This document shows positions 1,245-57,616 of a DNA stretch of 64,000 nucleotides, piece after piece. Position numbers and translations under genes: made by a program. Source of the stretch: Candidatus Bathyarchaeia archaeon (GTDB taxonomy: Archaea; Thermoproteota; Bathyarchaeia; Bathyarchaeales; Bathycorpusculaceae); the NCBI GenBank assembly GCA_050012255.1, contig JBEKHN010000001.1, forward strand, positions 288,001 to 352,000, in the 5' to 3' direction. The notes under the pieces are model-generated. The model was not told the origin of the DNA. It did not search any database and saw only the letters and a program-made list of their open reading frames with translations. The number at the start of each line of letters is the position of its first letter. Position 1 is the stretch's first letter.

Positions 1245-1316
1245 TGTTTCTCATCGTTGCCCGTTTCTTAATAGTCCCTTACTGATTATCACGCGCGCGT
1301 GTTTCGCAAGGTTTTC

Positions 1317-1604
1317 CTACTCTTTTGCGAGGGTTATTTCCATTGTTGAAACCATCCGTGCTCTGTTTTCGCCTTCTCTTGCTGGCATCTCCTCCGTTCC
1401 GATAGCGATTTTGCTCACTTTTAGGTCTTTTAGGAAGCGATTTCTGGTTATTTCAGCTACGTCAACAGCTGTAGTGATCGCTTGTCCTCTTGCTTTCAAA
1501 ACTACTTCCTTAGCATCGCCAGCCGATAGTCTTGTCATGACTGCCAGAACATAGTCCATTGGTGGTTTACTTCCAATGAAAACAATTGCCGATTTTTCCG
1601 ACAT
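1317..1604 (-). CDS. albA: DNA/RNA-binding protein Alba
   Basis: [15 protein letters not shown]...[25 protein letters not shown]...VSTMEITL is the Alba signature; GGAGTGA RBS upstream. Confidence 0.95.
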
Positions 1605-2616
1605 TTCAAATCACTCCTTTCATCATTAATTGTAACGTGCAACGTTGTTGTGTTCTTCCGGTCTCTCAACAACAGAACGCTGTTGCCCTTATACTACGCA
1701 TACTTCCTTATAAAGCGAAAAGACAACAGAGTAGCCTAAGGATATTTTCACAGCTCCCAAATCCTAGATTCCGGCCTTAGACGCAGCATTCACTTCGCAT
1801 TTAGGTGAAAGTTATAATCCTTGTTTGTTGTTACTATTTGATTCTAGGAAGGAAGATTTGTTTGAAACGATCGAGGAAAAAGCAGGCGAAAAGAGAACGA
1901 TTGTTGAAAAGAATGAAAAGTCGAGGGAAATGGAAACATGGAAAGAGTAACGTTAAGAAAGTAAGGAGACTTGAAGAAGCGCAGGCTCGTCTAGCCAATG
2001 CGTCTCCATAGGTGAAGGCGTCCGTAGCTTACGAAACATGCTTATTCTTTACTAGTTCCTTTCTCTTCGCTTGAACAAAGGAATTATGACATAGTCTGAA
2101 CGCCTAGTCCAGCGTTTTTCGTGATGTTTCTAAGGTCTATCTACGTAGAATAAGGCATTATAGCTATTGCTTTCTCAGCCTTCCTAATATTGGGTGGACA
2201 TCGCCATTGCGCCCTTCCTTCTATGAGGTTGACCCAGCAATTAAATGGCGCGCATACTTGTTCCTAAATTCCGTTCACGAGGGGTGCATGGCGTTTTCCG
2301 ATGGTCGATGGTCACTGTCACGGTTCAGCTGGGTGCTTGCGTGCTCACACCCTCCCCCCTCAGGGTATTCTACATGACCCAAATATGGTTGAAGAGCAAA
2401 ATGAGGAGCACAAGCCACTTCCCAAAAGAATTCAGGAACACGCTAGCGCGCGGAAGAAGCGCGAAGAAACTGAAGAGAACGCAAAAAAGCGACTTTTAGC
2501 CTCTCATCCTTATAAGCTGGGCTGATAATGTATATTGCAAGAAAGGCGTGCTAACTAACTTATCGCAACATCATTTGCCGTAGGACTAGCTTGCTTTTTC
2601 TGAAGGGTATTACAAC

Positions 2617-2916
2617 ATGTTAAATGTGGGGAAGGTATCTAACGGAAACCGCAGCAGATTACAGATCATAACGGAGATTCTGAGGCAGCTGCGAATACCG
2701 GGAGGAAAGGCGAACATCATGTCCCATTGTAACATGAGCACCGCACAATCAGGGCAATACTTGAATCTTATGACGTCAAGTAGTCTCATTCGGATGGGTG
2801 CTGATGCAGGAAAAGTGACGTACCAGAGAACAGAAGCTGGCCTAGAGTTTCTAGAATTATACAAGAAGATGGCTCTGCTACTTGATACTGGCATTTCTTC
2901 ACCTTTTCTAGTTTAG
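2617..2916 (+). CDS. Winged-helix transcriptional regulator (HTH_45-like)
   Basis: RSRLQIITEIL...KANIMSHCNMS...QYLNLM...YQRTEAGLEFLELY pattern. Confidence 0.8.
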   Translation: MLNVGKVSNGNRSRLQIITEILRQLRIPGGKANIMSHCNMSTAQSGQYLNLMTSSSLIRMGADAGKVTYQRTEAGLEFLELYKKMALLLDTGISSPFLV

Positions 2917-2944
2917 CCAAGACGGAGGAAATAATCAAGGAGAG

Positions 2945-3127
2945 GTGATGTTGTTGCTGAATATTAGGGATGTCAGGAAGTGCAGGAACTCTTTGGAGCT
3001 AAACGACTTCATCGAGAAGTACATTGCCGAGGGGAACTCGCAAAACGAGAGTGTCGACAGTACATACTGGAGTCTGTTCGAAGAATGGAAAAGGACTCTG
3101 AAGAAGAAGCCCACGAGCATGCTTTAA
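2945..3127 (+). CDS. Hypothetical small protein
   Basis: GAGGTG RBS-like sequence overlapping the start; the stop abuts a CGCGCGC motif. Confidence 0.35.
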   Translation: MMLLLNIRDVRKCRNSLELNDFIEKYIAEGNSQNESVDSTYWSLFEEWKRTLKKKPTSML

Positions 3128-3398
3128 CGCGCGCTTAATGAAGGGCAACTGCCTATTTTTAGGCGTCGATCTGCAAGCGCTTCTTACACTTGGCCGGGAT
3201 TCGAATGAAGAAGAGTGAAGAGAAAATCAGTAATTGGGCGTTCACCTCGCACGCATTGGGAATCACAGAGGAATGCTCGAAGAAAGCCTGAAGAAATTCA
3301 GGTCATTAGAGGATATATCCAATGAGCAGAGAAGGAAAGATGCAAGTCTACCCCCTCTACTTGTACCGATATGAGTAGCGGGCAGATATTGAAACGCA

Positions 3399-3626
3399 TT
3401 ATCCGAGCAGGACTTCCAATATCAATTTGTGACGCAAGACCTTAGCAAGGTCTGCTTGTTCTATAGCATCCTCCAAAGCATCAAGTTCTCTTTGCACAGA
3501 CTTTCTCATTTCTTCGCTAATTCTTTGATTGATCTCTTTCATTCGTTTCTGATAAAGTTCGTCCGCCTCTCCTCTAAGTCTCCAATAACGCTCCAGCAAA
3601 GATTCCTTTTTGGTTTGTTCCATCAT
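3399..3626 (-). CDS. Hypothetical helical/coiled-coil protein
   Basis: 75-aa ORF with an AGGTG RBS and a charged helical composition. Confidence 0.55.
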   Translation of the reverse strand: MMEQTKKESLLERYWRLRGEADELYQKRMKEINQRISEEMRKSVQRELDALEDAIEQADLAKVLRHKLILEVLLG

Positions 3627-4010
3627 TCACACCTTTCTCATCTGTTTTTGTTTGTTACTTGGGTTGCCTCAGTTCATTGATTGTATCAACAGGCATTAAT
3701 AGTTTAAGCACCCACGAGAAAAGAAGACAAGCGTCTTTGTTCTCAAGTGAGAAGAAGGCAGTTACATGGGTTACACAAGAGGAAAAACAAGAGAAGAAGA
3801 TCTTAAAAAACCTAAGCCTCAGAAAAAGAAGGAGAGAGAAGAGAAGCGGAAGAAGAAAAAACTTGCCCGGGTCGAAAGACAACAGTCCAGATAGGCTCGT
3901 CTAGAGCACAAGCAAGAGAAACTTTCTGTTCGCACAGCACGCGCACATGGCGTGAGTCTGTTTCTCACCCAGCGATTGTCTTCTTTTCAGCGCTCGTTTT
4001 CGCACATAAC

Positions 4011-4080
4011 GAGTTTACACAGGTTCTAGGCTATGCCATAAAGACTCACACAAGAGTTTACACATGCAAATGATTTATAT
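4011..4080 (+). promoter_or_regulatory. Putative promoter: direct repeat GAGTTTACACA (4011, 4054) followed by TATA box TTTATAT (4074)
   Basis: 11-bp repeat seen twice upstream of a TATA box about 40 bp before the ATG at 4118. Confidence 0.4.
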
Positions 4081-4117
4081 CCGACTTTCCTAAACTCTTT
4101 CCTCCGAGAGTGCAAAT

Positions 4118-4435
4118 ATGCCAATATTTTTGATAATTTCCAGGCATTCCGCAGAGAACTGTCCGCTGAACAATGAGAAAATGAAGAAAATGACGTTAGA
4201 ATTGCCAGCCAAATTGGGCGGACTGGAGAAGAAACATGGAGTGAAGAGGATTGGAGCATGGACTGTTGTTCCGGAACATCTGCTGATTTGGGTCTATGAA
4301 GCCCAAAGCTCAGACGCTCTGCAAAAATTCTCACTGGAACCAGAAATCGTTAAATGGATGGCTTGGAACACGAGCGAAATCAAACTAGCAATGAGTCTCG
4401 AAGAAAGCCTGAAATTACTAAAACAAGCCAAATGA
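4118..4435 (+). CDS. DUF3303/GYD-like small protein
   Basis: FLIISRHSAENCP...KKHGVKRIGAWTVVPEHLLIWVYEA; followed by a T-tract terminator. Confidence 0.7.
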   Translation: MPIFLIISRHSAENCPLNNEKMKKMTLELPAKLGGLEKKHGVKRIGAWTVVPEHLLIWVYEAQSSDALQKFSLEPEIVKWMAWNTSEIKLAMSLEESLKLLKQAK

Positions 4436-4493
4436 AATCCCAACTTTTTTTCTCTGATTTTGCACCGGTCATTCAGCCAGCGTACGCTCGTAA

Positions 4494-4775
4494 TTAATCT
4501 CTGTGTTCGTGGGATTCCTCTTCAGACTCTTCTTCATTTTCTTCTTCTTCCTCAGCAGCTTCTTCTCCCACGGCTCTTGCTTCTTCTTCAACTTTTCCTT
4601 CTGCAGGATAAGCCTCATCTAACCAAATCCTGAACTGTTCTTTGCTCTCAGGATCGGAAAAGGCCCACTCACACAGTTGACTGACGACGGCGTTGAGATC
4701 GATGTCATGATCGTCTGCCAAATTCTTCAGAAACTGTTCCCACTTTGCAGGCAAAGATACCGGAGGCCCAACCAT
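4494..4775 (-). CDS. Hypothetical protein with acidic C-terminal tail
   Basis: 93-aa ORF, GGTGA RBS-like sequence, TTTAAAT-like TATA upstream. Confidence 0.65.
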   Translation of the reverse strand: MVGPPVSLPAKWEQFLKNLADDHDIDLNAVVSQLCEWAFSDPESKEQFRIWLDEAYPAEGKVEEEARAVGEEAAEEEEENEEESEEESHEHRD

Positions 4776-4874
4776 CTTACTCTTTCACCATCACCTTTTA
4801 TGATTCAAGCCATATTTAAGCTTCAGACGTACTTGTTGCCCGAAACGTGCCAGCAATTAAGCACGCGCTTCAAG

Positions 4875-5505
4875 CTAGCGAGCGTTTTCGTAGAAAGAAT
4901 CAGGCATTGACCTTGACCATGCGTTCGGATTTTTGTAATTGACTGCTGGCGCCATATCTTCCGTCTGCTTTTCTTCTCCGGCAAAGATTTTTTTCATTTT
5001 TGACGAGTTCTCTGTGAGTCTCCTCATCTCTGATGATGGTTTCAAGAATGCCCTTTAGGTCTTCTAAGTCCACATTGTAGGTCTCGCGGATTTCTCTTGT
5101 CGTGTATTGAAGGGTCTTCAGCTGAATCAGAATATAATACTCTTCGCCAACAGTGCTCTCTAGGAGCATCAGCTTTTCAACCAACGATGACATGTGCTCT
5201 CTGGGTATTCTCTCCTTTCTGGAGATCTCTCCTGCAAGACGCTCAATTGCCGTCCAGGTTCCGCCAAAGAAGAGTTTCTTTTCGCAACCTCTGGGTTGCT
5301 TTTTTTGCTTAACTATGCTTTCGCTTATTCCTTTGAGGATTATGGAATGTTTCCGACTATCGAATGCTATGTGAAGCAGCAAGGAATTGATTAGCGGGAG
5401 ATTCACTTTGTCGGCAAGACTCTTGTAAAGTAGGTATGCCCTTTCTTCCAAAATGCTAGCGCAGCGCAGAAAGTCTGCAACGCTTTCCTGTTTGAGCTTT
5501 GTCAT
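4875..5505 (-). CDS. Ferritin-like/rubrerythrin-family protein, apparent frameshift near 5000
   Basis: E..AY..Y, DSRKH, EEYY and DEETH carboxylate motifs; the alternative frame continues KMKKIFAGEEKQTEDMAPAVNYKNPNAWSRSMPDSFYENAR* to 4875. Confidence 0.7.
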
Positions 5506-5598
5506 CCATAGACTCCCTTCTGACTAAGGTAATCGCAAAATGATAAACAATTTATGAATCCGAAATCTAGACGCACACTAAAGGAAAGAGACTGGATT

Positions 5599-5751
5599 CT
5601 ATCTTTGTTCTTTTACCAACAACAGTCTCTTCGCGATCTCTTTAGAGATCTTTTCGAGACCCTCAGCTAATTCTGCACGGGTAACCTCGTCTAGTGGATA
5701 CACTTTCCCATTCTTATCGATGAATGCAAGTTCCAACTTCCTTTTTTCCAC
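5599..5751 (-). CDS. 50-aa microprotein MEKRKLELAFIDKNGKVYPLDEVTRAELAEGLEKISKEIAKRLLLVKEQR
   Basis: Manual translation; strong RBS GGAGGTGA just upstream of the GTG; below the ORF-track cutoff. Confidence 0.6.
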   Translation of the reverse strand: MEKRKLELAFIDKNGKVYPLDEVTRAELAEGLEKISKEIAKRLLLVKEQR

Positions 5752-5840
5752 CGTTTCACCTCCTTCACACTCTATCATCTGCTACGGCGCGCGCTAACCT
5801 AAGAATGACAAGTTTCAATCCGCCACGTAGATCTAGTTTT

Positions 5841-6122
5841 TCAGTAGTTGCCGCGAGCGCGAGCGAGTTTGTATTTTCTATCTGACTCATCTGACTCTTG
5901 CTTGATCTTTCTATCTGACTCCTCGATCGCTCGATCGCGATCGAGCGACGCTTGCTTGATATAGTTGTGTTCGCTCAGGTAGGCCGTCACGATTGATCTG
6001 ACTATTTCTGCGTCTTTTGTTCCAAAGCCTTTCAACGACTGGATAATCTTCACTTGGTCTTCATCGAAGGTCACAAGAACCCGTTTACGCGAGCGTGCAC
6101 TTTGACTAATCACATTTGTCAT
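5841..6122 (-). CDS. CopG/ribbon-helix-helix regulator with repeat-derived C-terminal tail
   Basis: KRVLVTFDEDQVKIIQSLKGFGTKDAEIVRSIVTAYLSE is an archaeal RHH pattern. Confidence 0.7.
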   Translation of the reverse strand: MTNVISQSARSRKRVLVTFDEDQVKIIQSLKGFGTKDAEIVRSIVTAYLSEHNYIKQASLDRDRAIEESDRKIKQESDESDRKYKLARARGNY

Positions 6123-6127
6123 ATTCT

Positions 6128-6285
6128 TTAATCTTCATGCTCTGTCATATACTCTTTGAGAGCCCTGGCTGCTTCCTCGCTTACTTTCCGACTTGATCCG
6201 TGCTTCTGAACAACAAAGAGGAACATTGTTTCCAGGTGTCTTCGCCCATGTTTAGGCTGATCTCCTTTTTCGGCATGTCCGTCAT
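6128..6285 (-). pseudogene. RHH-type regulator with a 1-bp frameshift
   Basis: MTDMPKKEISLNMGEDTWKQ / FLFVVQKHGSSRKVSEEAARALKEYMTEHED* in two frames; 158 bp long. Confidence 0.55.
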
Positions 6286-6359
6286 GCTTACCGTCACACA
6301 TTTATAAGTTTGCTCTCAGTGCGCGAAAATCTTAAAAACAGGCAAACGGAGTTATCTGT

Positions 6360-6713
6360 ATGGTCAAACTAGTTCCTGTTGTCTGCCCACAATGTGGTGC
6401 TGACCTCCAGATTCCTGGTCATCTCAAGAAGGCATACTGCACCTATTGTGGGGCACAAATAGTATTTGAGAAGGAAGTGGAGAAGACCAGACTGTGTCCA
6501 GAATGCGGAGGTACAGGAAAATGCCTGCCTCGCGCGACATCTGGAAAAATGGTGCCCACATGTCACGGAACGGGTAGATGCGCCGCTTGTGAAGGAACTG
6601 GAAAAATAGGGAACTTGCCGTGTGACCTATGCAAAGGGAGCGGAAAATGTTCGAGCTGCGGCGGGACAGGAAAATGCTCAAAATGTGGAGGCTCTGGTCG
6701 AGTAGTATCTTGA
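6360..6713 (+). CDS. Cys-rich Zn-finger protein (zinc ribbon plus DnaJ-like CxxCxGxG repeats)
   Basis: CPQCG, CTYCG, then about six CxxCxG[TS]G repeats; TATA-like sequences upstream. Confidence 0.8.
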   Translation: MVKLVPVVCPQCGADLQIPGHLKKAYCTYCGAQIVFEKEVEKTRLCPECGGTGKCLPRATSGKMVPTCHGTGRCAACEGTGKIGNLPCDLCKGSGKCSSCGGTGKCSKCGGSGRVVS

Positions 6714-6847
6714 CGCCCCGAGCACGCGCCCCAACTAGCCGATTTCTTTAAGACTGCGCTTTCTCAAGAACTATTGTTTTGCATTAGTAGACTAATGTAG
6801 AACCTGTTAAATCCTTGGAAGATAGCCAATGTACGGAAGGCGAAATC

Positions 6848-7027
6848 ATGGGCGATCACCGATGCGAGAATTGCGGGAAGATGTTCTACACCCGGTATGT
6901 GCAATACATAGGCAAGTGCTTATGTCCAGAATGTAGGCGCAAATCGGGAGCAGCCAAAAAAGAAAAGGAATACGGAGAGGCAAAAGAATACTGGGAAGCG
7001 AGGAAAAAGGAAGTGCGGGACTTTTGA
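6848..7027 (+). CDS. Small Zn-finger protein
   Basis: HRCENCGK...CLCPECRR. Confidence 0.65.
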   Translation: MGDHRCENCGKMFYTRYVQYIGKCLCPECRRKSGAAKKEKEYGEAKEYWEARKKEVRDF

Positions 7028-7187
7028 TTGCTTCTTTTGGCACAGGAGGGAGGAACGCAAGGGTAGCTACGACTAGACTTTTCCGAGCAGTTTCTGTTGA
7101 TAATCTCTCCATTGAGTCTTAGCATAGTTGACTCATGTAGAATGACTTAAAAACGCGGAACAGATACTGATAATAGGGTTGTAAACT

Positions 7188-46123: not shown

Positions 46124-46669
46124 ATGGTCGAGGAAGGGAGTCTGATGAAATATTCCGTCAAGTTTCTTATCAGGCTGTGTGTTTTGTGGGCGACAGTATT
46201 CATTGCCCTTGATTTGGGAATTATCCGGGTCCCTTCAGTTGTTGCAAGCGATAACACTTCTTTGAAGGTTGGTGAAGCTGATGATGCCTTGCAGAGGGCT
46301 TTTATGGCTGTTTCGGAAGCTGAGAATGCCGGGGCGAACGTTTCCAGTCTGTTGGTTCAGCTAGAAGAAGCAGGTCAAATCTTGGTAGAAGCCAAATTGG
46401 CTTACAACAACGCTAATTTCAATGAAGCTACTGGTGCAGCTGACGAGTGTTCCGTATTAGCGAGTAGCGTCATAAATCAGGCTTCAACTCTGGAAAGTTC
46501 AGCTTTGATCAGTACTCGTGTCCTGTTGTGGCAAATGATTGCATTCGCTGCAGTTGGAGGATTCGTCTTCGCAATAGTCTTGTTGATGATTTGGGTTAGA
46601 TTCAGGAAGCACTACGTAAAGAACTTGAACAGCAAGAAGCCAAGGGTTGAGTTCGATGCTGAAGCTTAA
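46124..46669 (+). CDS. Membrane-anchored helical protein
   Basis: Signal peptide, AFMAVSEAENAGANVSSL, C-terminal TM. Confidence 0.75.
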   Translation: MVEEGSLMKYSVKFLIRLCVLWATVFIALDLGIIRVPSVVASDNTSLKVGEADDALQRAFMAVSEAENAGANVSSLLVQLEEAGQILVEAKLAYNNANFNEATGAADECSVLASSVINQASTLESSALISTRVLLWQMIAFAAVGGFVFAIVLLMIWVRFRKHYVKNLNSKKPRVEFDAEA

Positions 46670-47264: not shown

Positions 47265-47285
47265 GCGAGGGGGTGTTATGGGAAG

Positions 47286-49016
47286 ATGGACAAGTCAAAT
47301 GACGATCGACGGTCACGAAAGGTACAGTTGTTAGTAGTTGCGTTTTTTGTGTTCTTGGTTCTCCTAGTTGTCCAGGTTTTTCTGAGCACGAAGGACAGTA
47401 CTGACTCTTGGATCTTGGAGGGTCTTGTTCCGTACTTTATTCTGGTTACTCTAACCTATAGTGCAATTGTGTCCTATTCTTCAAACATGAAACTAATAGC
47501 TTTGATTAGTGGTTTTTATCTTGTTGCATTGAACGTTATACCAACTCTAAAATACGTTTTTGTCTATGGTTATCATGATCCGTTGGATCATTTTGGTTCT
47601 ATCCAACAAACGATAGCAGCAGGGCATATGTCCGAGGTAGGTGTTTACAGTGAGCAATATGGAGCTGCGCCCGGGCTGCATCTCCTAGTATCGGAATTGT
47701 CAATGGTGACTGGTTCGAATGCGCTTTTTGCCTTCAAATTATTCCTGGTGGTTTCTCCTTTCATTTTACCACTTGTCGTCTATCTTGTAATGAAGAGGTT
47801 GGACGCGCCCAACGGGCTTGTAAAGGCGGCTCTGTTTGCTAGCGTGATAACCGCACCAGTAACGTACATTTATACAGGCACAACTTCCGTCTATCCTCTT
47901 TATGAGATGTTCATTTGCTTTTGCTTGCTCTTCTTCTCCTTCGGACCACGTTCGCGTTCAGAATTTGTTACTGCGTTTGTGATAGGGGTAGGAATAGTGG
48001 TGTCGCATGATTCAACTTCCTTCTTTTTGTTGGTGATCGTGTCCTCGACTATGTTATTTATCATATTGGCGAGAAGAATCGGGATTTTTAAGAGAATTCC
48101 AAATCTGTCGATTCTCTTTGCTATGAGCTTTGGGACTCTCGTACTTGCGCATTTCACTTTTACTTCCAGCACTGGTAATCTCACAAGACTTTTGTCTCTG
48201 ATGGATCAGATGATTGTGAGGACACTGTTTGGGCACCAATTGGCGGCTGTCAGCTATTATCAAGGTTTTTTCAGTCTAGGTTTAATTGACAGGATAAAAA
48301 TTTTCTTGATTACTTACGGAAATGTTGCTATCCTACTCTTACTTGTTGCTGCGGCTCCTTTTGCGTTGTACAAACTTCGTAGAGCGAATGTGAAACTGCG
48401 CGGATTCTACTATAACATGATCTTTCCAGCCTTGCTGGCTTTCTTGTCATTTGCTCTGTATCTTTTTGTTAGCGGCGCTCCAGATAGAGGATTGATTTAT
48501 TTTGCTGCCTTTGCACCATTCCTTGCTGGATTAACAATATACTACCTATTTTTCTCAAGGAGATATCGCTTCGATAATCTGGTCGTGACAATCGTCGTTT
48601 TCTCTTTGATCTGCGCATGCGTTCTATCTACATTCCCTGTTCAGCCCTTGATGCCAACCGTTTCTACAACACAGGGGAGTTATTATGCTTATGACTTGAG
48701 ACAAGTCAACACCGTATATGATCGATCGCTAGTTCTGTTTGTGAGCGCACATAACTCAAGCCTAAGTATATGGACAGACGATATTCTGAGGGATCTAACA
48801 CTCGCCTTAACGAACTCAGATTTTCAGTCTTTACTTACCTCGAACCCAGAGAAAGCTGCATTGTTGCTTCTTTCAGTATCCCATGCCATTCCATCAGGCA
48901 GAAATGCGTTTAGCAATGAGCAATACATCCAGAACGCCTCGCTACAGGATGATATCCTATATTCGAATGGTCTTTCATTTGCGATGTTGAACACGAGCAA
49001 CACTGCATTCCCATAG
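47286..49016 (+). CDS. Multi-pass membrane protein (GT-C/polymerase-like)
   Basis: More than 10 TM helices; YHDPLDH, PGLH and SHDST motifs. Confidence 0.7.
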   Translation: MDKSNDDRRSRKVQLLVVAFFVFLVLLVVQVFLSTKDSTDSWILEGLVPYFILVTLTYSAIVSYSSNMKLIALISGFYLVALNVIPTLKYVFVYGYHDPLDHFGSIQQTIAAGHMSEVGVYSEQYGAAPGLHLLVSELSMVTGSNALFAFKLFLVVSPFILPLVVYLVMKRLDAPNGLVKAALFASVITAPVTYIYTGTTSVYPLYEMFICFCLLFFSFGPRSRSEFVTAFVIGVGIVVSHDSTSFFLLVIVSSTMLFIILARRIGIFKRIPNLSILFAMSFGTLVLAHFTFTSSTGNLTRLLSLMDQMIVRTLFGHQLAAVSYYQGFFSLGLIDRIKIFLITYGNVAILLLLVAAAPFALYKLRRANVKLRGFYYNMIFPALLAFLSFALYLFVSGAPDRGLIYFAAFAPFLAGLTIYYLFFSRRYRFDNLVVTIVVFSLICACVLSTFPVQPLMPTVSTTQGSYYAYDLRQVNTVYDRSLVLFVSAHNSSLSIWTDDILRDLTLALTNSDFQSLLTSNPEKAALLLLSVSHAIPSGRNAFSNEQYIQNASLQDDILYSNGLSFAMLNTSNTAFP

Positions 49017-49370
49017 ATTTTGAGATGGTTAACTAGCGCGTTTGAATTCTAGTTCAGACATGGTATAACGCTTGCATGAAGAATTCAGAAAAAATAATAA
49101 TGTTTCATTGGTGAACGCGTCGATCCGTTAAACGACGTCCTCAAAATGCTCGCCCGCTCAGCAGTAAAGGATTTGACAGAGGTGATACATTTCTGATATA
49201 ACAAGAGGTTTTTGTGCTCATGCGCGCGGGCAGATTAAATAATTGTTTTTAATGGGAGAGCCCGGTCTCCTCTTATTGGTTAGAATGAAGCGCGCGCGAC
49301 CGACATCCCGATGACGGAATTACTATTACTTAATTTCACCCCCTTTTAAAGAGCGCGATATCCATTCAGC

Positions 49371-49540
49371 GACCTTAGAACCCTTAGAAACACACCTTAA
49401 ACAACATTTAGGGTCTCTAACGCGTTTAAGCGGGTTTTTTAAGGCGTTTAACGCAAATCCAAGGTCGGTCAACATACATTTCCTAAGGCGTTTAACGCAA
49501 ATCCAACACCGAACTCAAGGACCTTAAAAACCTTAAATCC
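49371..49540. repeat. Non-coding repeat cluster: TAAGGCGTTTAACGCAAATCCAA x2 (49440, 49484) flanked by GACCTTA..CCTTA units
   Basis: Read directly from the sequence. Confidence 0.8.
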
Positions 49541-49812
49541 AGGCCCTAATCATGCCGTAACAGAAAAAGGCTTGCACACCCGATAGCAGCTATCGGATGA
49601 GCATGGTTCAAAGTCTAGCGGTCGGGCATGGGCCGCACGGCTTAACCAATCCTGGTAGTTTTGTGTAGCCTCTGATCTAATCCTGTCAAACCGCTCTTTT
49701 GTGGTCCACGTCATGCGTGTCGGAAAGCGCGCGCGCTAAAATGTGCGTGGGGTTATCCAAATAGCTTTTATTATAGTCTCTGCGTTGTACCCTAGTGTTA
49801 CGCATACAAAGA

Positions 49813-50002
49813 ATGATTGTTTCGGTGATAATACCCACGTACAAGAGAGTTACTGAAACGAAAAATCTTTTAGACATGATACAACGGCAAGACATGGCAC
49901 CCTATGAGATCCTCGTAGTTGATGACACGCCGTCCAGACAAATTGAAACCTTGTGCCATGACTGTAAAGAAGGACTAGCAAACAAAGGTTGCGAACTGGT
50001 AG
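49813..50002 (+). pseudogene. GT2 5' fragment truncated at TAGCGCGCGCTA
   Basis: MIVSVIIPTYKR...EILVVDDT...; similarity stops at 50000. Confidence 0.8.
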
Positions 50003-50132
50003 CGCGCGCTAAACCTCAAATTCTCGTAACGCGCAGACAAGTTTTTCTTGAAGAAGCTTACAATCTAATCCAAGGTGCTTGCAGGTCCGTCTTGGAAACA
50101 TTCACGATATACCGACAGAGGTTGTTATGCTT

Positions 50133-51317
50133 ATGCGCATCTTCTTTCTAGGTGATGCAGAACCTAGACTCGTGCTCGGAAGCGCGGCTGCGCTTGCGAT
50201 GAAGGGCCATGATGTCTTCCATGTAAGCCCATCAAAGAATCTGTTTCCAAGTTTCGCTGAGAAAATCCAAGTTGAAGTTTATGAAGGATTGCGCGTTCCA
50301 ATAAACCGGATAGATATACCTGTTATCGGAGAGAAGAATCTTGCTGGTAGAGAAATCAGTCCGCAAGGCGTTTCTGCCTCTGTATTAACGTTGTTGAAAG
50401 AGGTTTCTCCAGATGTGATTGTATCGTATCCAGAAAGCTGGATGCTGGCTCGTTCGCTGAGCAAGAAGCTGTATATTCCGTTGGTTCTCTACTTAGTCGG
50501 CATCAGAGCACTATATCTATTTACCTACCTGCAGTTTTTTCACAAGTATTCCGACATATTGCGTGCCCCATTTTCTTGCACTTATAATGTGGCTCTCTCT
50601 GAACTATCAGATTTCACGATTGCACCAAAAAAAACCGTAAAGTTCCTCAGATATTTTGGGATTCGAAGAGTTGCTGCGCTTCGCCCTCTTTTTGCGCGCG
50701 TCAATTTCTCGTCAGAACGCGTACGCAGAGGGACTAACATCGAGCTGCCTGAGTCTTATGTACTAAGCATTGCCACAGTCAGTAGAGACAGGAACCCTGA
50801 GATAGACCTAGGCGTTTTTCGGATTGTTATGGCTATTGCACGCAAAACACCAGATGTTTTCTTCGTGGTTGTTGGCACATCGATTAGCGATTTAACGAAT
50901 CTGGGCAAAGCTTCTGCCCTGCCAGGTAATGTGCGGCTTGTGGGAAAGATATTCGACGATGATTTGCTTGCTGTTATGTACAGGAAAGCCAAGTGTGTTC
51001 TGTGTCCGATAGTGTACCCAGGGCTGTCCACTAGAGTTGATGAAGCTCTTTTCTACAAAAGACCCATTGTAATGACCAAGACGACTGCTGACTCATATGG
51101 TGCGCTTGTGGATCACGAAAATTGCATTGTCGAGCAGGATTTTGGCAAGTGGCCTGCAAAGGTGCTCCAAGTAATGGACGATAGTGAATTGAGAAAAAAA
51201 CTCGAAGTGGGTGCGGAAAGATACTACGCCGAAGTATGTTCACCGAAACGGCACGCGCTGATATTGGAACAAATACTTAACTACGTGGTTGAGTACGCAC
51301 AAGCACGAAAAAATTGA
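50133..51317 (+). CDS. GT-B (family 4-like) glycosyltransferase
   Basis: KGHDV, FVVVG, YRKAKCVLCP, TRVDEALFYKRPIV. Confidence 0.8.
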   Translation: MRIFFLGDAEPRLVLGSAAALAMKGHDVFHVSPSKNLFPSFAEKIQVEVYEGLRVPINRIDIPVIGEKNLAGREISPQGVSASVLTLLKEVSPDVIVSYPESWMLARSLSKKLYIPLVLYLVGIRALYLFTYLQFFHKYSDILRAPFSCTYNVALSELSDFTIAPKKTVKFLRYFGIRRVAALRPLFARVNFSSERVRRGTNIELPESYVLSIATVSRDRNPEIDLGVFRIVMAIARKTPDVFFVVVGTSISDLTNLGKASALPGNVRLVGKIFDDDLLAVMYRKAKCVLCPIVYPGLSTRVDEALFYKRPIVMTKTTADSYGALVDHENCIVEQDFGKWPAKVLQVMDDSELRKKLEVGAERYYAEVCSPKRHALILEQILNYVVEYAQARKN

Positions 51318-51613
51318 ACGGAAAATCAGAAAAAGGAAGAATCGGCACACCCCACGCTTCAGTAGTGATTGTGGAACACGCTAAGAAACTACTTCAACTG
51401 TTCTGATTCTAGTGCAATATGGAGAAACCATAATCCTTAACTGTTTCTTCATGAGATTCAGGAAGGAAGGAATCTTAATTGAACCAGGAGGTCATTTACT
51501 GTTTATTGCTGAAGGTGATCGCGCGTGTCATTGCTGAATGACTGCGACATTGTTGCTCGGGCGCGCGCTCCGGGCTCGAAAAAAGAGCCTTCTTGGTTGC
51601 AGGAGAGATCTAC

Positions 51614-52597
51614 ATGACGAAGTTCAAAAGCATTCTGGTCTGTGGGGGGGCGGGTTTTTACGGAAGCAGCATAGTGGACGTGCTGGTTAAAGCCGGGGCT
51701 GAAAAAGTCATTGTCGTGGACAATCTGTTTCTTGGAAATCTGGAGAACCTCCAATGGGCGCAACGTAATGGCAATTTAATCGTGTATAGGGAAGACGCGC
51801 GCTACATCTCCGTCTTGGAAAGCATAATTGAAAAAGAGAAGCCTGAGGCTGTAATCAACTGCGCTGTCAAATGCCTACCGTACGGCTTTGTCGACCCAGA
51901 GGGTGCGTTTACTGCGGGAGTTGATATTGCGGTAAATCTCTGCAATTTGTTACGCAAGAAAAAGTTTGTGAGACTGGCGCAAGTTTCTTCATCAGAATCC
52001 TATGGCTCAGCAGAATACGTGCCTATGGACGAGAAACACCCTTTTCATCCTGAGACTTCCTATGCTGCTGGAAAAGCCGCTGCTGATCTCATTGTTCTGT
52101 CCTATCGAAATATGTACAACTGCGAGGCTACGGTCATAAGACCTTTCAACATGTATGGTCCGAGGCAAAACATGGCTGCATACGCTGCTGTTATCCCTGT
52201 GACGATTCGAAGATTGCTTACTTCAGAGAAGCCCGTGTTAGAAGGAGATGGCGAGCAAACTCGGGACTTTACTTATGTAGAGGATGCCGCTGAAGGGGCG
52301 CTGGCATTGCTGGAGTGTGATGCTGCGTTGGGCAAAGTTGTGAACTTGGGAACAGGAAAAGAGACGAAAATCAAAGACCTCATTGCCATGATTTGCGAAC
52401 ATTTCGGCTATCCCTTCGAGCAAATTAAACGTGCACCAACAAGACCAGCCGATGTAAGAAGATTGTGTGCGGGAATAGAACTGGCGAAAGAACTGATTGG
52501 CTGGAAACCGAAAACCGACTTCAAAGCAGGCATCGAGAAGACATCCAAATGGTTCAGCGAAACGATGAGAATAACAAGCAGAATGACTTACTACTAA
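51614..52597 (+). CDS. NAD-dependent nucleotide-sugar epimerase/dehydratase
   Basis: CGGAGFYGS, SSSESYG, YAAGK, RPFNMYGP, GDGEQTRDFTYV. Confidence 0.93.
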   Translation: MTKFKSILVCGGAGFYGSSIVDVLVKAGAEKVIVVDNLFLGNLENLQWAQRNGNLIVYREDARYISVLESIIEKEKPEAVINCAVKCLPYGFVDPEGAFTAGVDIAVNLCNLLRKKKFVRLAQVSSSESYGSAEYVPMDEKHPFHPETSYAAGKAAADLIVLSYRNMYNCEATVIRPFNMYGPRQNMAAYAAVIPVTIRRLLTSEKPVLEGDGEQTRDFTYVEDAAEGALALLECDAALGKVVNLGTGKETKIKDLIAMICEHFGYPFEQIKRAPTRPADVRRLCAGIELAKELIGWKPKTDFKAGIEKTSKWFSETMRITSRMTYY

Positions 52598-52712
52598 CTA
52601 TTTCAGTGACTGAGACGCCCCGGTAGCGCGCGCTAAAAAGCGCTAGGCATATTAGTCCTCAAAACGAAACACAACTGTGCAGATCATGCTACCTTCGGAG
52701 TTCTAGGAATCC

Positions 52713-53609
52713 TTGGAGAAAAAAATGTTAGAAAATGTTGATGTTCGTTTGTTGCCTTATTCGTGGATTGGCGTCGACAGAAACGTATTAGTAGATAAAG
52801 CAATTGCTGACATGAAGCATTTAAAATTGGTTTCAAATGAGAGGGTAACTCTTTTCTATAATGATTTAGAGTGGGATACAAAATTCTTTAGAGCAAAGGC
52901 GGGTGAGATTCCCTTCGTCATGCCAAAGGCGGATGCAACAATACATGACAGAGTAGAGATCCTAAGAAAACTCGTTAAAAGGACAGAGTACGAGTTCACT
53001 ACTCTCAGAGTCAATGCCCATGATCTGGCAACTGCACAAGCTGCGGAGCATTTGGGCTACTTTATCGCTGACATTCACACAAGCTACTTCTTTGATAAGC
53101 GCAAGCAAAGTTGCGAACCACTTCCCAACCAATACCAAGCCACAAGCCACGTTTACAAGTGTCCCTATTCTGCCAAGAGCCTTATAGCACTTGCCCAATC
53201 AGTTTTCTCCACCAATTTTGCCCATCGATTCCACAATGATCCACACATACCCAAAGAAAAAGCCGACGAATTATACGTGTTGTTGACCAAGCATTGCCTA
53301 GAAAAGCATAGCTCCGTAATAGTTGTTGAGCATGATGGTAATCCAGTTGGATTTTTGACTCTGCAAGAACACGCTGAAAACATTGACGGTGTAACAATTG
53401 GCAAATTCGGAATGGCAGGGGTCGCTCCAGAAGCTCGGGGAAAACAAATCTATCAGAACATGATTCTACAAGGTCTTCATCTCATTCAAGACGACATTGT
53501 TGAAACCACGAATACGGGCATAGTGAATCCAGTTCAACGAGCATGGATGAACCTGAAGTTTAAACCAGCATATGTGAAACTTACACTGCACAAATGGAGA
53601 GTCAAATGA
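52713..53609 (+). CDS. GNAT acyltransferase, WecD/RffC-like
   Basis: LEWDTKFF, HRFHNDPHI, GVAPEARGKQI. Confidence 0.8.
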   Translation: MEKKMLENVDVRLLPYSWIGVDRNVLVDKAIADMKHLKLVSNERVTLFYNDLEWDTKFFRAKAGEIPFVMPKADATIHDRVEILRKLVKRTEYEFTTLRVNAHDLATAQAAEHLGYFIADIHTSYFFDKRKQSCEPLPNQYQATSHVYKCPYSAKSLIALAQSVFSTNFAHRFHNDPHIPKEKADELYVLLTKHCLEKHSSVIVVEHDGNPVGFLTLQEHAENIDGVTIGKFGMAGVAPEARGKQIYQNMILQGLHLIQDDIVETTNTGIVNPVQRAWMNLKFKPAYVKLTLHKWRVK

Positions 53610-53704
53610 AAATGAGAAAGCAAAGCGACGAAAGAAAGAACGCAGTGAAGAGGAACCTATGAACCATTGCACTTCGCTTTGAAGGAGAGTGAAACGAAAC
53701 GCAA

Positions 53705-54445
53705 TTGAAGGACAAGGTTTGCTTGGTAACGGGAAGCAGTAGAGGCATTGGAAAAGCAATTGCTTTGGCACTTGCCCATGAAGGCGCAAAACTAGCAATC
53801 ACCTACCATACTCAAAAATCTGACGCGATGGAAACCATGAACGAAATTGCCAGTGTAATTCATTCTAAGCATATCACTATTAGGGCGGATGTTTCAAAAG
53901 AGGAACAAGTCAATAGAATGATTCAGGAAACAGAAAAGACTTTTGGAACCATAGACATCCTAATCAACAATGCAGGCATACATAGAGACAGCATGTCCTG
54001 GAAAATGGATAAGAAAATCTGGAAAGAAGTATTGGCCACCAATCTCATGGGCCCTTTTCTCTGCACAAAACATGTGCTGCCGATAATGAGGGAGAAGGGT
54101 TGGGGCAGAATCATAAACATATCCTCAGTAATTGGAGAAACAGGATTGATAGGAGCAAGCAACTATGCTGCGTCAAAGTCTGGTCTTGTAGGCTTCACCA
54201 AATCCGTCGCCAAAGAAGTTGCAGACAAACACATCACGGTTAACTGTGTTGCCTATGGCTACATGAATGCGGGCATGAACCTTCAGCTTGCAGAAGAAAA
54301 CAGACAGAAAGTCTTACAGAATATTCCTTTGAAACGATTTGGGACATTAGAAGAAGCGACAGGCCCAGTTCTGTTTCTATGCACTGACGCAGCCTCGTAT
54401 ATAACAGGGCAGACGATTCATGTAAACGGCGGATATTACCTCTGA
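53705..54445 (+). CDS. FabG/PhaB-like short-chain dehydrogenase
   Basis: TGSSRGIG, NNAGI, NISS, YAASK, YITGQTIHVNGG. Confidence 0.9.
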   Translation: MKDKVCLVTGSSRGIGKAIALALAHEGAKLAITYHTQKSDAMETMNEIASVIHSKHITIRADVSKEEQVNRMIQETEKTFGTIDILINNAGIHRDSMSWKMDKKIWKEVLATNLMGPFLCTKHVLPIMREKGWGRIINISSVIGETGLIGASNYAASKSGLVGFTKSVAKEVADKHITVNCVAYGYMNAGMNLQLAEENRQKVLQNIPLKRFGTLEEATGPVLFLCTDAASYITGQTIHVNGGYYL

Positions 54446-54473
54446 TACAAGCGATTAAAAGCGCGCTCTGGCT

Positions 54474-54870
54474 ATTGACAGATTTCATGCGGACACAGAC
54501 CTTTCGGAGAAACTTTCTGACGAGGTATATACTGAATGGCTGAAGAATAGTCTAACCGGGAAATTGGCAGACTACGTTGTGGTCCCAAGAGTTGACGGCA
54601 AAGCCGCCGAGTTCTTGACTTTGAAGCAACATGCTGACAAAGTTGGAGATACTGATATTGGTTAACTGGTCCTAGCGGCGGTCGATACATCAATCCGCGG
54701 CAAGGGTATTTACGCCAACATGATATCGCTTGGGCTGAGAGTTTTGAAGTGGGAAGCAGAAATTGTGGAGACAGGCACTCAAGTCACAAACTACGCTGTC
54801 CAAAAAGCTTGGGTTCAGGTCTTAAACAAGTGACAACGACACACGTATTTCATAAATGGTTAACTAGTCG
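54474..54870 (+). pseudogene. Second WecD-like GNAT, 5'-truncated, with an internal stop and a frameshift
   Basis: IDRFHADTDLSEKLSDEVYTEWLKNS...*LVLAAVDTSIRGKGIY...TGTQVTNYAVQKAW.../...HVFHKW. Confidence 0.75.
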
Positions 54871-54928
54871 AAGAGATTATTCCTTGAAAGATCAATCTTG
54901 ACTGCTTGGACGATGAGGAAGAAGAGAC

Positions 54929-54980
54929 TTGAAGCTTGAGCATGGCGGAGTCTTGGTAACGGGCGGCGCTGGCTTCCTAG
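54929..54980 (+). pseudogene. Stub of an NAD-dependent epimerase (LKLEHGGVLVTGGAGFL) ending at TAGCGCGCGCTA
   Basis: Rossmann motif VLVTGGAGFL cut before its final Gly. Confidence 0.75.
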
Positions 54981-55265
54981 CGCGCGCTACGCTATCAACA
55001 ACTCTGGCGTAGCCGTTACCAGAGGGGTGGGAGGGATCCAACGAATTGGTCTGCATACTATCTTCAAGCGCGAAGAGATGTCGAACAGCGTTGCCGTTCA
55101 ATCAAGATAGTATATATACTATTTTGAGCGCGCGCGCTAAGTTTTTGCAGCTTGCCTTCCAATCCGAGTTCGCTTCTTCGTATAGAATCAGAGTAGAGAA
55201 TTGGCGTTGCGCGTGGGAAAACTGGGACACAGATCTCTGGAAAACAAAGGAATTGGAGGGCACGA

Positions 55266-56378
55266 ATGAAGAATAAGAAACTGAAGCTTATTGAACCCGT
55301 TATCGGTAAGGAGGAAATCAGAAGAGTCAGCAAAGTCCTCTGCTCAGGTTGGCTAACCGAAGGACGGCAAACAGAAGAGTTTGAAGAACAAGTGAGGAAG
55401 TACATTGGAGTAGACTACGCGATTGCCACTACTTCCTGTACAACCGCTATTGAACTGGCCTTGAGAGCCTTAGGGATAGGTCCAGGTGACGAAGTCATAA
55501 TTCCTGACTTCACGCATCCAGCCACAGGAAACATGGTTAAGTGGGTAGGAGCTACGCCTGTACTTGTCGATGTGGACCTGTTCACGTACAACATCGTGCC
55601 CGAAGAAATAGAAAAAGCAGTGACTAGGAAAACAAGATGCATAATTCCTGTTTCTTGGGGGGGAAACCCGTTAGACTTTGAGCCACTGAATGAAATCAAA
55701 CTTAAGCACGAACTGTTAATAGTGGAAGACGCGGCGTGCAGCTTGGGTGCTGAATCCAGAGGAAAGAAAACAGGAACCATGGCAGACATTACATGCCTGA
55801 GCTTCCACCCTAGAAAAATAATAACAACGGGAGAAGGAGGAATGGCAGTGACAGATAACCCTGTCTATGCGAAACGAATACATGATCTCAAGAAGTTCGG
55901 TATGACTACTGGAAAAAAAGGAATCAGATTTACAGGCAATGGAACCAACTACAAGCTGAGCGACGTTTTGGCAGCCATTGGAATAGCTCAGATGCAAAAG
56001 ATAAACAGAATCATAGATAGACGAATTGAGCTTGCCCACACATACGACAACCTACTTTCAAAGGTTGACTCGATCAGGCCTCCACAGAAAAATGAGAACG
56101 TGAAGCACACGTATCAATCCTATGCAGTCTACATCGAAAAGGAAGGAACAAGAGACAAAGTCATCAAAGACCTTCAAAAAGAGAACATTGAAACACAAAT
56201 AGGAACGTATGCTTTGCACATGCAGCCTAGCTATGAACATGTAAAGAAAATCGGGAAATTGACAAGAGCGAAGAAATTATACAAGAACTTATTGACACTA
56301 CCCATGTGTCATTCGATGACGAAGAGAGATCAAGAACGAGTTGTCGCGAAAGTCGAGTCCTCGATGAACGAGTATTAG
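55266..56378 (+). CDS. DegT/DnrJ/EryC1/StrS sugar aminotransferase
   Basis: TSCTTAIELAL, GPGDEVI, EDAACSLG, SFHPRKIITTGEGG, LPM. Confidence 0.95.
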   Translation: MKNKKLKLIEPVIGKEEIRRVSKVLCSGWLTEGRQTEEFEEQVRKYIGVDYAIATTSCTTAIELALRALGIGPGDEVIIPDFTHPATGNMVKWVGATPVLVDVDLFTYNIVPEEIEKAVTRKTRCIIPVSWGGNPLDFEPLNEIKLKHELLIVEDAACSLGAESRGKKTGTMADITCLSFHPRKIITTGEGGMAVTDNPVYAKRIHDLKKFGMTTGKKGIRFTGNGTNYKLSDVLAAIGIAQMQKINRIIDRRIELAHTYDNLLSKVDSIRPPQKNENVKHTYQSYAVYIEKEGTRDKVIKDLQKENIETQIGTYALHMQPSYEHVKKIGKLTRAKKLYKNLLTLPMCHSMTKRDQERVVAKVESSMNEY

Positions 56379-56474
56379 GCAAGACTCGTCTTCTCACTCA
56401 ACTCGCGACATAGCACGCGCTTCAACTAGCTGACAGATTTCCTTTCCCGAACCAGCAACTTTCGCAAATACTCA

Positions 56475-56933
56475 TCATCTTTGAAATCTACTAGTTTGGA
56501 CGAGTGTGTTCTTAGTGTTCCTGTTTCCGGGCACCTGCATACATGCCAAACACAGTTCACTCTGCGAGGCCAAACAATCATTTTGCAAAGACAGGGCATG
56601 ACACTCAAGTTGCTTCATAGACAAATCATGCTTCACACCTTCCAACCTGCTTTTAACGTCTTTGCGTAGTCTTCTCTGCTCTTCAAGCTGGCGTTCAAGC
56701 CGGCCAATTTCATTCTTCGCTTGATGCAACTCCCTATATAGTAGCGCCTGTCCGTCGTGCAGCTCACGCACCCTCTTGATCACGAATAGACTCAGCAACG
56801 CATCATTGAACGGTAAGACGGAGCCACATGAACTAGCATCGTTCGTATTCACTATGCTTTGAAGCTCGATGAGATCCTCAGGCGCAACTTCTCTTGAAGG
56901 CTTCTTATCGTCTCCCACACTTCCGGAGAGCAT
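56475..56933 (-). CDS. Coiled-coil hypothetical protein (possibly the frameshifted C-terminus of 56852..57421)
   Basis: Heptad-rich ELHQAKNEIGRLERQLEEQ; overlaps the upstream ORF. Confidence 0.45.
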   Translation of the reverse strand: MLSGSVGDDKKPSREVAPEDLIELQSIVNTNDASSCGSVLPFNDALLSLFVIKRVRELHDGQALLYRELHQAKNEIGRLERQLEEQRRLRKDVKSRLEGVKHDLSMKQLECHALSLQNDCLASQSELCLACMQVPGNRNTKNTLVQTSRFQR

Positions 56934-57421
56934 TCACGTAACAGTCTTTCCGACGCGAAAGATGATATGATTCTCTCTTTGTTCATCCACAGAAAACCCT
57001 TTCGTAGCCTCTCCCTCCCTTCAAACCCTTTGCCTTGGATTTCGGTGGAACAGGAGGCAACAGAATAGAGAAGATCAGCGTCGGTCCGCGCGTCCTGCAC
57101 AACCCGCTTAACATCTACTACGCCCACGGTAGGATTCGATTTCACGCGCCCGTAGTAGTACATAAGCCGCCTTTTTCCCCTGTCCAAAACCCAATAAACA
57201 TAGCCGCGCACCCTGCCCCGCTTATACTCACGCCTGTCAACAAGCCCTTGCCGCCTACACTTCAAAAGAACCATCGAAACATTCTCCCCGGAAACCCCAC
57301 GCAGCCCAGCAGCAACATCACTGCTAGTTGCTGTTCCCAACCTAAAGACGCTTTCAAGAACCCGTCTTTTCAAATCACAACGAACAAACATCACCATTTT
57401 CCTTCTCAACGGTTCCTTCAC
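56852..57421 (-). CDS. Winged-helix DNA-binding protein
   Basis: ATSSDVAAGL..VSGENVSMVLLKCRRQGLVDR...YVYWVLDRG. Confidence 0.6.
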   Translation of the reverse strand: MKEPLRRKMVMFVRCDLKRRVLESVFRLGTATSSDVAAGLRGVSGENVSMVLLKCRRQGLVDRREYKRGRVRGYVYWVLDRGKRRLMYYYGRVKSNPTVGVVDVKRVVQDARTDADLLYSVASCSTEIQGKGFEGRERLRKGFLWMNKERIISSFASERLLRECSPEVWETIRSLQEKLRLRISSSFKA

Positions 57422-57616
57422 CCAGTCTTAGGACACACGCACTTTTAGAGTTGACGACTAAACACTAGCACGTAAACACCTGCCAACACCGGTCAACCCT
57501 CTCTACATAGTAGAGACACACGAAAAAAGCCAAGCGCGTTGAGACAAACCGCACGCGCAAACGAATTTAGGAACAGGCATGTGCGCTATCAAGAAGGGAT
57601 TTGAGCGGCCTCTAGT

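Follow-up and report, generated by a model that had tools for sequence, protein, structure and literature searches.

An alternating-GC palindrome at transposon ends, deletion joints and homology breakpoints in a genus of Bathyarchaeia

Short runs of alternating G and C are scattered through a 64,000-nucleotide (nt) stretch of a Candidatus Bathyarchaeia archaeon genome (GCA_050012255.1; contig JBEKHN010000001.1, here C1, positions 288,001 to 352,000; hereafter the window), and an initial annotation had proposed that they are the core sites of a recombination system that cuts genes. We argue here that the run is probably the palindromic joint of a family of DDE transposons specific to this archaeal genus, whose transposase carries the DUF772 and DDE_Tnp_1 domains and resembles those of the IS1182 and IS5 families of insertion sequences (ISs). 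Comparison of the assembled genomes shows that every copy of the element sits in a GC run, the empty site being a solo run (one without an adjoining inverted repeat) of 8-10 bases; that solo runs persist between species and are reused for insertion, an 8-base run becoming 6+6; and that runs are found both where segments differing between close species end and where lineage-specific deletions have been joined, with gene stubs beside them.

The window belongs to a 2.35-Mb genome in 38 contigs (G000) and holds 40 alternating-GC runs of at least six bases, 17 of which have eight or more. The octamer GCGCGCGC occurs 17 times against 0.51 expected (100 dinucleotide-preserving shuffles, largest 4), and the exact 12-mer TAGCGCGCGCTA three times against 0.01; the n = 3 form, TAGCGCGCTA, has no match in the window. 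The motif is thus real, but its first description as some 30 TA-flanked copies needs amending, as TA stands on at least one side of only 16 of the 40 runs and on both sides of five. The reported bias towards intergenic DNA stands. Judged by crude open reading frames (ORFs), which cover 82% of the window and 84% of the genome and on which the split between coding DNA and spacer rests, only two of the 17 window runs of eight or more lie within genes, and one of these (13996-14004) falls in the over-extended start of the ORF of a dockerin gene fragment. Genome-wide, GCGCGCGC is the most over-represented octamer, with 434 sites or 13.9 times the order-3 Markov expectation, and the ORFs hold 135 of these sites (31%), compared with 71-94% for seven other GC-rich octamers. 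Other over-represented words are the octamers GTATATGC/GCATATAC (112 counts, 26 expected) and CCCTAGGG, together with GGGGGAGG, which belongs to family A of the miniature transposable elements with inverted repeats (MITEs) described below; the most depleted dinucleotide is TA (0.60).

The length distribution of the runs is distinctive. Counts fall from 7854 through 1735 and 517 to 171 for runs of 4, 5, 6 and 7 bases, rise to a bump of 201, 123 and 63 at 8, 9 and 10, and then collapse to 6 runs of 11 or more in all, a profile that simple microsatellite slippage fits poorly, although one variant with an added GC does exist. Outside the run only the first base is biased (T 46%, mirrored by A), the second weakly so; the run is usually flanked by A...T (A at 68% and T at 60% of sites), and TA accounts for about a quarter of sites. 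As conservation stops one or two bases beyond the run, the motif is not the core of a longer repeat, and an extended repetitive extragenic palindromic (REP) sequence or MITE around every run is ruled out. The distribution of the motif follows the genus: AGCGCGCGCT is present in 7-114 copies in each of the ten other genus genomes, whereas 27 of 30 searched genomes from other genera have 0-1, with 9 in G024 and 5 in G019. G001 is the complete genome with the most copies in the genus. In the literature searched we found no description of the motif, or of MITEs or ISs of this archaeal group.

A self-comparison of G000 ties the run to mobile DNA. Among dispersed repeats of at least 150 bp, 55 of 2226 ends have a long run no more than 5 nt away, where chance would give 7.9 (largest 15), and whole families of ~200-bp repeats have runs at both ends. 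When aligned, these repeats are MITEs of the form (T)A-GCGCGC-WWGCNTGTYCCTAAAT ... inverted ... -GCGCGC-T(A). The genome has about 31 such copies, of 164-298 bp; they are numerous, lack a transposase, are polymorphic for insertion and have ends in common with ISs of two other genus genomes (G006 and G009). In all, 107 runs of six or more adjoin an inverted-repeat core, and 88 of these are exactly six long; the 384 solo runs of eight or more, in contrast, peak at 8 (194), followed by 9 (122) and 10 (62). TA is not a regular target duplication, since it flanks only ~12 of the 31 MITEs on both sides, and a 99%-identical MITE pair has the flanks AA..TG and GA..TA.

Autonomous copies with MITE-type ends were found in five genomes. 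The copy in G000 is degraded (C24:15246-16185, DUF772 + DDE_Tnp_1), that of G001 is read in two overlapping frames, with terminal inverted repeats matching at 16 of 18 positions and runs of 8+4 at its ends, and that of G009 sits at a contig end. Intact copies occur in G003 (1125 bp, 331-residue transposase) and G006 (1113 bp, 348 residues), each with 17 of 18 terminal inverted-repeat bases matching between its ends. The G003 transposase matches PF01609 (1.5e-29) and PF05598 (2e-13), and both domains are also present in the G006 and degraded G000 copies. By profile comparison the protein is related to both IS1182 and IS5 transposases and assignable to neither, the IS1182 model scoring best. It is present in 6 of the 11 genus genomes and in 3 of the 30 others. 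Larger elements with the same ends also exist: a 1.77-kb element of G001 (G001:C1:1558994-1560758) has MITE-type inverted repeats around a gene for a 284-residue MEDS-domain/winged-helix regulator, and no transposase. Of the 76 contig ends of G000, eleven have an inverted-repeat core no more than 300 nt away, against 1.26 expected; they belong to contigs C3, C7, C8, C9, C15, C16, C20, C24, C25, C28 and C34. The assembly breaks at these elements, which suggests that further multi-copy elements were left unassembled and that their true number exceeds the assembled count.

The order of events at individual sites was read from occupied and empty alleles in three relatives, whose identity to G000 is ~95% (G001), ~92% (G007) and ~90% (G010); the comparison of G000 with G001 took in 1.2 Mb of the latter. 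At C3:43049, G000 has TA-GCGCGC-MITE-GCGCGC-TA, G001 and G010 have TA-GCGCGCGC-TA, and G007 has a decayed 8-mer, so that the solo run is the older state, which the MITE entered (8 to 6+6). The site at C2:86879 is a solo 8-run in G000 and G007 and holds the 1.77-kb cargo element in G001 (8 to 8+6), and a further pair shows 6+5 against 7. At C1:139381-141566 the solo or decayed 9-mer of G001 and G010 corresponds to 2.18 kb in G000, comprising a methyltransferase-like gene, a second solo run, a gene of unknown kind and, at its edge, a MITE. The asymmetric ends of other element copies, 8+4 (G001), 7+7 (G003), 8+6 and 6+7, are what insertion at a GCGC would give if the target runs had 8, 9 or 10 bases. 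A 4-bp direct repeat and a 4-bp inverted repeat are here indistinguishable because GCGC is its own reverse complement. The initial annotation had offered an excision footprint with a TA duplication as an alternative; a transposon is indeed involved, but TA is not regular and the solo runs of the outgroups predate the insertions. Equally, its concern that the motif might be an assembly or chimera artefact is removed by the presence of the same sites in independent assemblies of four species, and contigs from the sequencing runs of four other studies cover the compared stretch and show a length variant at one solo run.

Among 52 tightly aligned solo sites of G000 and G001, 21 are identical, and 18 of the 31 that differ do so by same-length substitutions only. 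None of the 52 differs by exactly four bases, which leaves unsupported the idea that a solo 8-run is the doubled GCGC of an AGCGCT site. Length is polymorphic at the solo 8-run C1:287115-287122 of G000, which has an extra GC in contigs of three other metagenome runs and reads GCGCACACGC in G001. At C1:286695, what looked like an insertion of 12 bases with a GGAA duplication proved to be a deletion in G001, as G007 keeps a decayed run there. Loss of an element with a run left behind is suggested by three comparisons: a MITE with 99 nt of flank in G000 faces a 9-run in G001; an inverted-repeat remnant in G001 faces an 8-run in G000; and two occupied/empty pairs fall outside the rule that insertion adds four bases.

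The proposal that homology between relatives breaks at the motif is borne out. G000 and G001 share 161 homology blocks spanning 736 kb, and of their 314 ends 21 in G000, 44 in G001 and 60 in either genome have a long run no more than 3 nt away, whereas random intergenic positions gave means per genome of 3.3 (max 8) and 4.0 (max 9). The 120 collinear gaps between the two genomes include 51 clean large indels, and in 16 of these a run of seven or more stands at the joint of the short allele, with about seven more showing decayed runs by eye. Some of these deletions cut genes, as had also been claimed. In contig C5, the 291 bp at 91746-92038, most of a small membrane-protein gene, are kept in G007 and replaced by the 10-run (GC)5 in G001. 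The 1469 bp at C5:96966-98436, part of which G007 retains, are replaced by A(GC)4T in G001, where a 95-residue stub of a 295-residue gene is left. Overlapping parts of the two-gene stretch C5:96686-98436 have been lost in G001, G007 and G010, with right ends no more than 40 nt apart, and the other joints there are of ordinary kinds, GTCGAC repeats in G007 and a 22-nt filler in G010. A further case is a Vps4-like MIT + AAA ATPase gene with two G000 copies that are 81% identical (C33:7400-8707 and C18:25208-26501): the C33 copy, with 63 nt of upstream and 50 nt of downstream sequence, is bounded by GCGCGCGC on both sides, whereas the C18 copy has no run. The idea that the large deletions are IS1272-style replacements of distant inverted repeats was not supported; inverted repeats at the long-allele boundaries ranked 0.1 or better in 3 of 16 cases, and none was above chance barring two known elements. 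Several run-free indels between G000 and G001 have joint overlaps of 9 or 17 nt, or inverted repeats of 10-25 bp at their ends, and other mobile elements with different target duplications appear to be active in the genus as well.

A mechanism consistent with these data would start from a family of autonomous elements of ~1.1 kb, their MITEs of 130-300 bp and larger same-ended elements with passenger genes. The palindrome would be what the transposase recognizes, in the way that IS1272 and other IS1182-family ISs recognize other palindromes, and the joined GC ends would be what remains when an element is lost, or when one inserts at a break and is then lost. Selection would clear insertions of 8-10 bp from genes, so that runs would gather in spacers, around accessory genes and at the edges of pseudogenes. 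Insertion of IS elements at breaks, accompanied by large deletions and by no duplication, has been described (10.1101/2024.06.02.596822). An IS inserted at a break, whose interior was later lost with the GC ends joined, might therefore be one route to new runs; the birth of a solo run at a previously run-free site was not observed directly.

Several results weigh against this transposon-based explanation. Two occupied/empty pairs depart from the +4 rule (8+6 against 8, and 9+6 against 9). A related IS of another family (G029, 47% identity) ends in GTGC...GCAC, an inverted and not a direct repeat, which by analogy argues for the inner GCGC being the tip of the element and not a target duplication. 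One tight solo site is a pure +8 insertion without duplication, and another is a +6. Of the 16 deletion joints with a run, 12 face a long allele that has a run at neither boundary; duplication of GCGC alone by a transposon cannot make such joints. No excision or insertion was seen in short Logan contigs of four other metagenome runs, none of which spanned an empty MITE site. The transposase itself falls under every NCBIfam cut-off (IS1182, 166.4 against 270 bits; IS5_4, 121.4 against 140), its genes are few, with three matches in the complete G001, and it was not found in 5 of the 11 genus genomes (63-93% complete), which still have 7-56 copies of the motif.

It could be argued from some of these results that the runs are made by break repair without any transposon, either because the palindrome is a fragile, Z-DNA-prone site or because a polymerase or end-joining adds GC, and that the transposon merely lands there. 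The run-free long alleles and the pure +8 insertion speak for this, as do the excess of solo runs of eight or more over the 107 element ends, the greater age of solo runs than of insertions at two loci and the added GC that distinguishes strains at one solo run. A constant 8-base core between A and T flanks is not, however, what repair would be expected to leave as filler; other, independent deletions in this part of C5 have the ordinary joints described above; and the transposon copies have the run's own uniform sequence as their outermost bases. No candidate enzyme emerged, Ku, LigD and PolX not having been searched for. We consider this account improbable for the system as a whole, but for the joints that arise de novo, filler added by repair is still the chief competitor. 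It is likewise rather unlikely that the palindrome is a portable joint, written by the transposase or by coupled repair whenever DNA is removed or swapped, in a transposon-derived form of cassette exchange and gene deletion. Runs would then be made de novo at deletion joints and kept for millions of years as docking sites, and, if this is true, surface-glycan and accessory genes would be shuffled by a mode of remodelling not described for archaea.

The reading first given to the window, an integron-like exchange in which the palindrome is a core site and tyrosine recombinases swap cassettes, sometimes through weak secondary sites, now seems very unlikely. There is a likeness, in that genes are bracketed by a short repeated site and slots are empty or filled depending on the strain: run-bounded segments look like cassettes, the slot at C1:139381-141566 being an example, the copied Vps4-like ATPase gene has a run at each joint, and in the window two runs (15276-15283 and 18032-18039) bracket two tandem tyrosine-integrase genes, both on the minus strand. 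The run-bounded elements, however, have inverted repeats of DDE type and a DDE transposase and no recombinase, and the arithmetic of 8 against 6+6 fits insertion. Nothing is conserved more than one or two bases outside the run that might serve as recombinase-binding arms, exchange at secondary sites predicts half-runs where the joints hold whole ones, and no attI-like arrangement was seen beside the window integrases, of which there are three (Phage_integrase matches among the 62 ORFs scanned) and not the four claimed. The attC sites of integrons are imperfect palindromes of 57-141 bp recombined by a tyrosine integrase, an anatomy that is absent here.

It is also highly improbable that the run is an intergenic signal under selection, such as a terminator, a site for a regulator or nucleoid protein, or a domain boundary. 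The motif is palindromic and intergenic, some orthologous sites are conserved across species that are 90-95% identical, and convergent spacers are slightly denser in runs (0.93 per kb) than tandem (0.72) or divergent (0.64) spacers, with ~0.07 in ORFs. All three spacer types are nonetheless occupied and no preferred distance from starts or stops was found in the G000 spacers, on which grounds a role as promoter or terminator was rejected; in addition, decay of sites between species is unrestrained, runs prefer long spacers (median 326 bp) that contain gene debris, and an 8-base palindrome without a loop forms no hairpin. HIP1 (GCGATCGC), an iterated palindrome of cyanobacteria, is frequent inside genes and is not known to behave as an indel. 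An equivalent kept by biased repair tied to a GCGC-type DNA methyltransferase can be all but dismissed, since, although the run is, like HIP1, a lineage-specific GC-rich palindrome of eight bases that exceeds all other words in over-representation, although 18 of the 31 differing tight sites are same-length substitutions, and although G000 has two C5-cytosine methyltransferase genes (C7:4931-5887 and C6:37304-38281), the motif is depleted in coding DNA, as the initial annotation had rightly stressed, comes and goes as an indel at deletion joints and is tied to transposon ends, and PF00145 occurs in only 2 of the 11 genus genomes and not in G001 (N4/N6 methyltransferases and Vsr were not searched for).

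The preferred reading, a palindromic joint of DDE transposons, has partial precedents. IS1272, a member of the IS1182 family, uses palindromes as insertion sites and makes no target duplication there, and the same source cites a review that notes palindrome targeting in the family (PMC5678879). The present family is like IS1272 (PMC5678879) in being a DDE transposon with palindromic targets that lie mostly between genes, and may also share its lack of a conventional duplication. Deletions are linked to both, and IS1182 is the best NCBIfam match of our transposase. IS1272 targets stem-loops of 21-85 bp that are unrelated in sequence, and removes them, whereas the target here is a uniform, loopless GC run of 8-10 bases. 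Here, moreover, the halves of the target stay at the element ends and there are hundreds of empty copies; in comparison with IS1182 our transposase is shorter (331-348 residues), scores far under the family cut-off and has an archaeal host. To our knowledge, palindrome-targeting transposition of IS1182 type is otherwise known from staphylococci.

Members of the IS5 family duplicate a palindromic tetranucleotide of 4 bp (YTAR for IS5). The elements described here share with them the DUF772 + DDE_Tnp_1 architecture, a length of ~1.1 kb, the MITE derivatives and, in the change from 8 to 6+6, what would be a 4-bp GCGC duplication. They differ in that the target is a palindrome of 8-12 bases, that the IS5_4 model is not reached and that the empty targets form a dispersed repeat; moreover, while two occupied/empty pairs show a change of +4, two others show one of +6. 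Some ISs, such as IS1397, target REP sequences or bacterial interspersed mosaic elements (BIMEs); REPs and their associated tyrosine transposases (RAYTs) form dispersed palindromic repeat systems, the REPs being imperfect hairpins of ~35 bp spread by a Y1 (HUH) transposase. The likeness lies in a dispersed intergenic palindrome at which an IS can land safely, but the run has 8-10 bases, no loop and no conserved flank and is thus no ~35-bp hairpin. The footprints left by cut-and-paste excision (Tc1/mariner, P element, hAT) are short remnants of both element tips and, like the solo runs, are palindromic traces where an element had been, but they are not normally conserved, reusable targets, and there is no regular TA duplication here. 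What sets this system apart from IS1272 is the combination of a uniform 8-10-base GC target, half-sites kept at the element ends, hundreds of empty copies and an association with one-fifth of interspecies breakpoints, in an archaeal genus.

This study indicates that one short word marks about one-fifth of homology breakpoints and about one-third of large indels between two close species, and the run can be read straight from sequence as a sign that genes were gained, lost or truncated in this uncultured lineage of archaea. For annotation, stubs beside a run are likely to be pseudogene remnants, and spurious ORFs lie inside MITEs; some contig breaks in this metagenome-assembled genome are also explained by these elements. 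A transposon using a uniform 8-base palindrome would represent an extreme of target choice, and an explanation of the whole runs at previously run-free joints could reveal a new outcome of repair or transposition.

Within the window (Table 1) the initial annotation had named seven genes cut at the motif. Three of these cuts are supported, each by a partial Pfam match that begins or breaks off at a run. The CARDB match of the dockerin fragment begins at residue 16 of ORF 13959-14459, directly past the run, and its DNA homology to G001 paralogues starts at 14007; the PQQ propeller fragment covers profile positions 49-126 of 329, its match stopping at residue 120 (~nt 15166); and the GT2 fragment covers Pfam positions 1-62 of 168, with the match stopping at residue 73 (nt 50013). 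The remaining cuts are unconfirmed. The GNAT-like pseudogene matches Acetyltransf_1 at E 0.034 (14.9 bits, below the cut-off, with its TAA read as X), and the epimerase stub shows only a 9-residue Rossmann-motif match, identical at 7 of 9 positions to the N-terminus of the epimerase encoded at 51593-52597. The supposed toxin stub (18067) and ribbon-helix-helix (RHH) gene (18520) have no Pfam match, nor does the 67-residue ORF 18482-18682 on the minus strand. The 84-residue ORF 2245-2499, which overlaps the window MITE, also lacks a Pfam match; the MITE itself occupies the orthologous G001 site as well.

Table 1. Alternating-GC runs and associated features of the window (positions are those of the 64,000-nt stretch)
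Feature	Position	Strand	Context
Solo run CGCGCGCG	1292-1299		Between GT4 glycosyltransferase gene and Alba gene; homology to a paralogous G001 stretch starts 1 nt past the run
MITE, family A, 205 bp	2248-2452	+	GCGCGC-ATACTTGTTCCTAAAT ... inverted ... -GCGCGCG; aligned with 10 other G000 copies
Solo run GCGCGCGC-TA	5787-5794		Intergenic; same run at orthologous G001 site, flanks 96.5-97% identical
Solo run	13996-14004		5' limit of CARDB + dockerin gene fragment 14005-14459
Solo run	15155-15162		3' limit of PQQ/beta-propeller fragment 14807-15205
Solo run	15276-15283		9 nt beyond stop of integrase gene 15292-16557 (minus)
Solo run GCGCGCGC-TA	18032-18039		3 nt upstream of integrase gene 16554-18029 (minus)
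Solo run TA-CGCGCGCGC-TA	18069-18077		Adjoins DUF433 gene; no gene fragment confirmed
DUF433 gene	18092-18442	minus	Whole profile matched (1-56 of 56); in spacer earlier read as toxin/RHH debris
Solo run TA-GCGCGCGCG-TA	26161-26169		Intergenic
Solo run	28900-28907		Between two GT2 genes
Run in 829-residue M14 peptidase ORF 38669-41158 (minus)	38999-39006		One of two runs of 8+ in a crude ORF
Solo run	49290-49298		In 780-bp gene-free stretch 49017-49794
Solo 10-run-TA	49727-49736		In gene-free stretch 49017-49794
Exact TAGCGCGCGCTA	50000-50011		End of N-terminal GT2 fragment 49795-50013
Solo run	51561-51568		Upstream of epimerase/dehydratase gene 51593-52597
Exact TAGCGCGCGCTA	52624-52635		Between epimerase gene and next gene
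GNAT-like pseudogene, one in-frame TAA	54459-54830	+	Starts at 6-run 54461-54466; weak
Exact TAGCGCGCGCTA	54978-54989		After ~20-residue stub carrying VLVTGGAGF; weak support
Solo 10-run-TA	55128-55137		Upstream of DegT aminotransferase gene

The Pfam matches depict the window as an island of surface-glycan and S-layer genes with the three integrase genes. Part of the integrase stretch (~16289-17927) matches a paralogue of 74% identity that lies at the end of contig C6. Positions 1-7032 are the only part of the window with a counterpart in the 1.2 Mb compared of the 2.35-Mb G001, and positions 44000-58000 gave short or weak matches only against five whole genus genomes, including the nearest. 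Positions 7033-64000 encode integrases, an S-layer-like protein, about 15 glycosyltransferases and sugar-modifying enzymes and a 1700-residue FG-GAP/LamG protein, and the region looks like a variable surface-glycan island.

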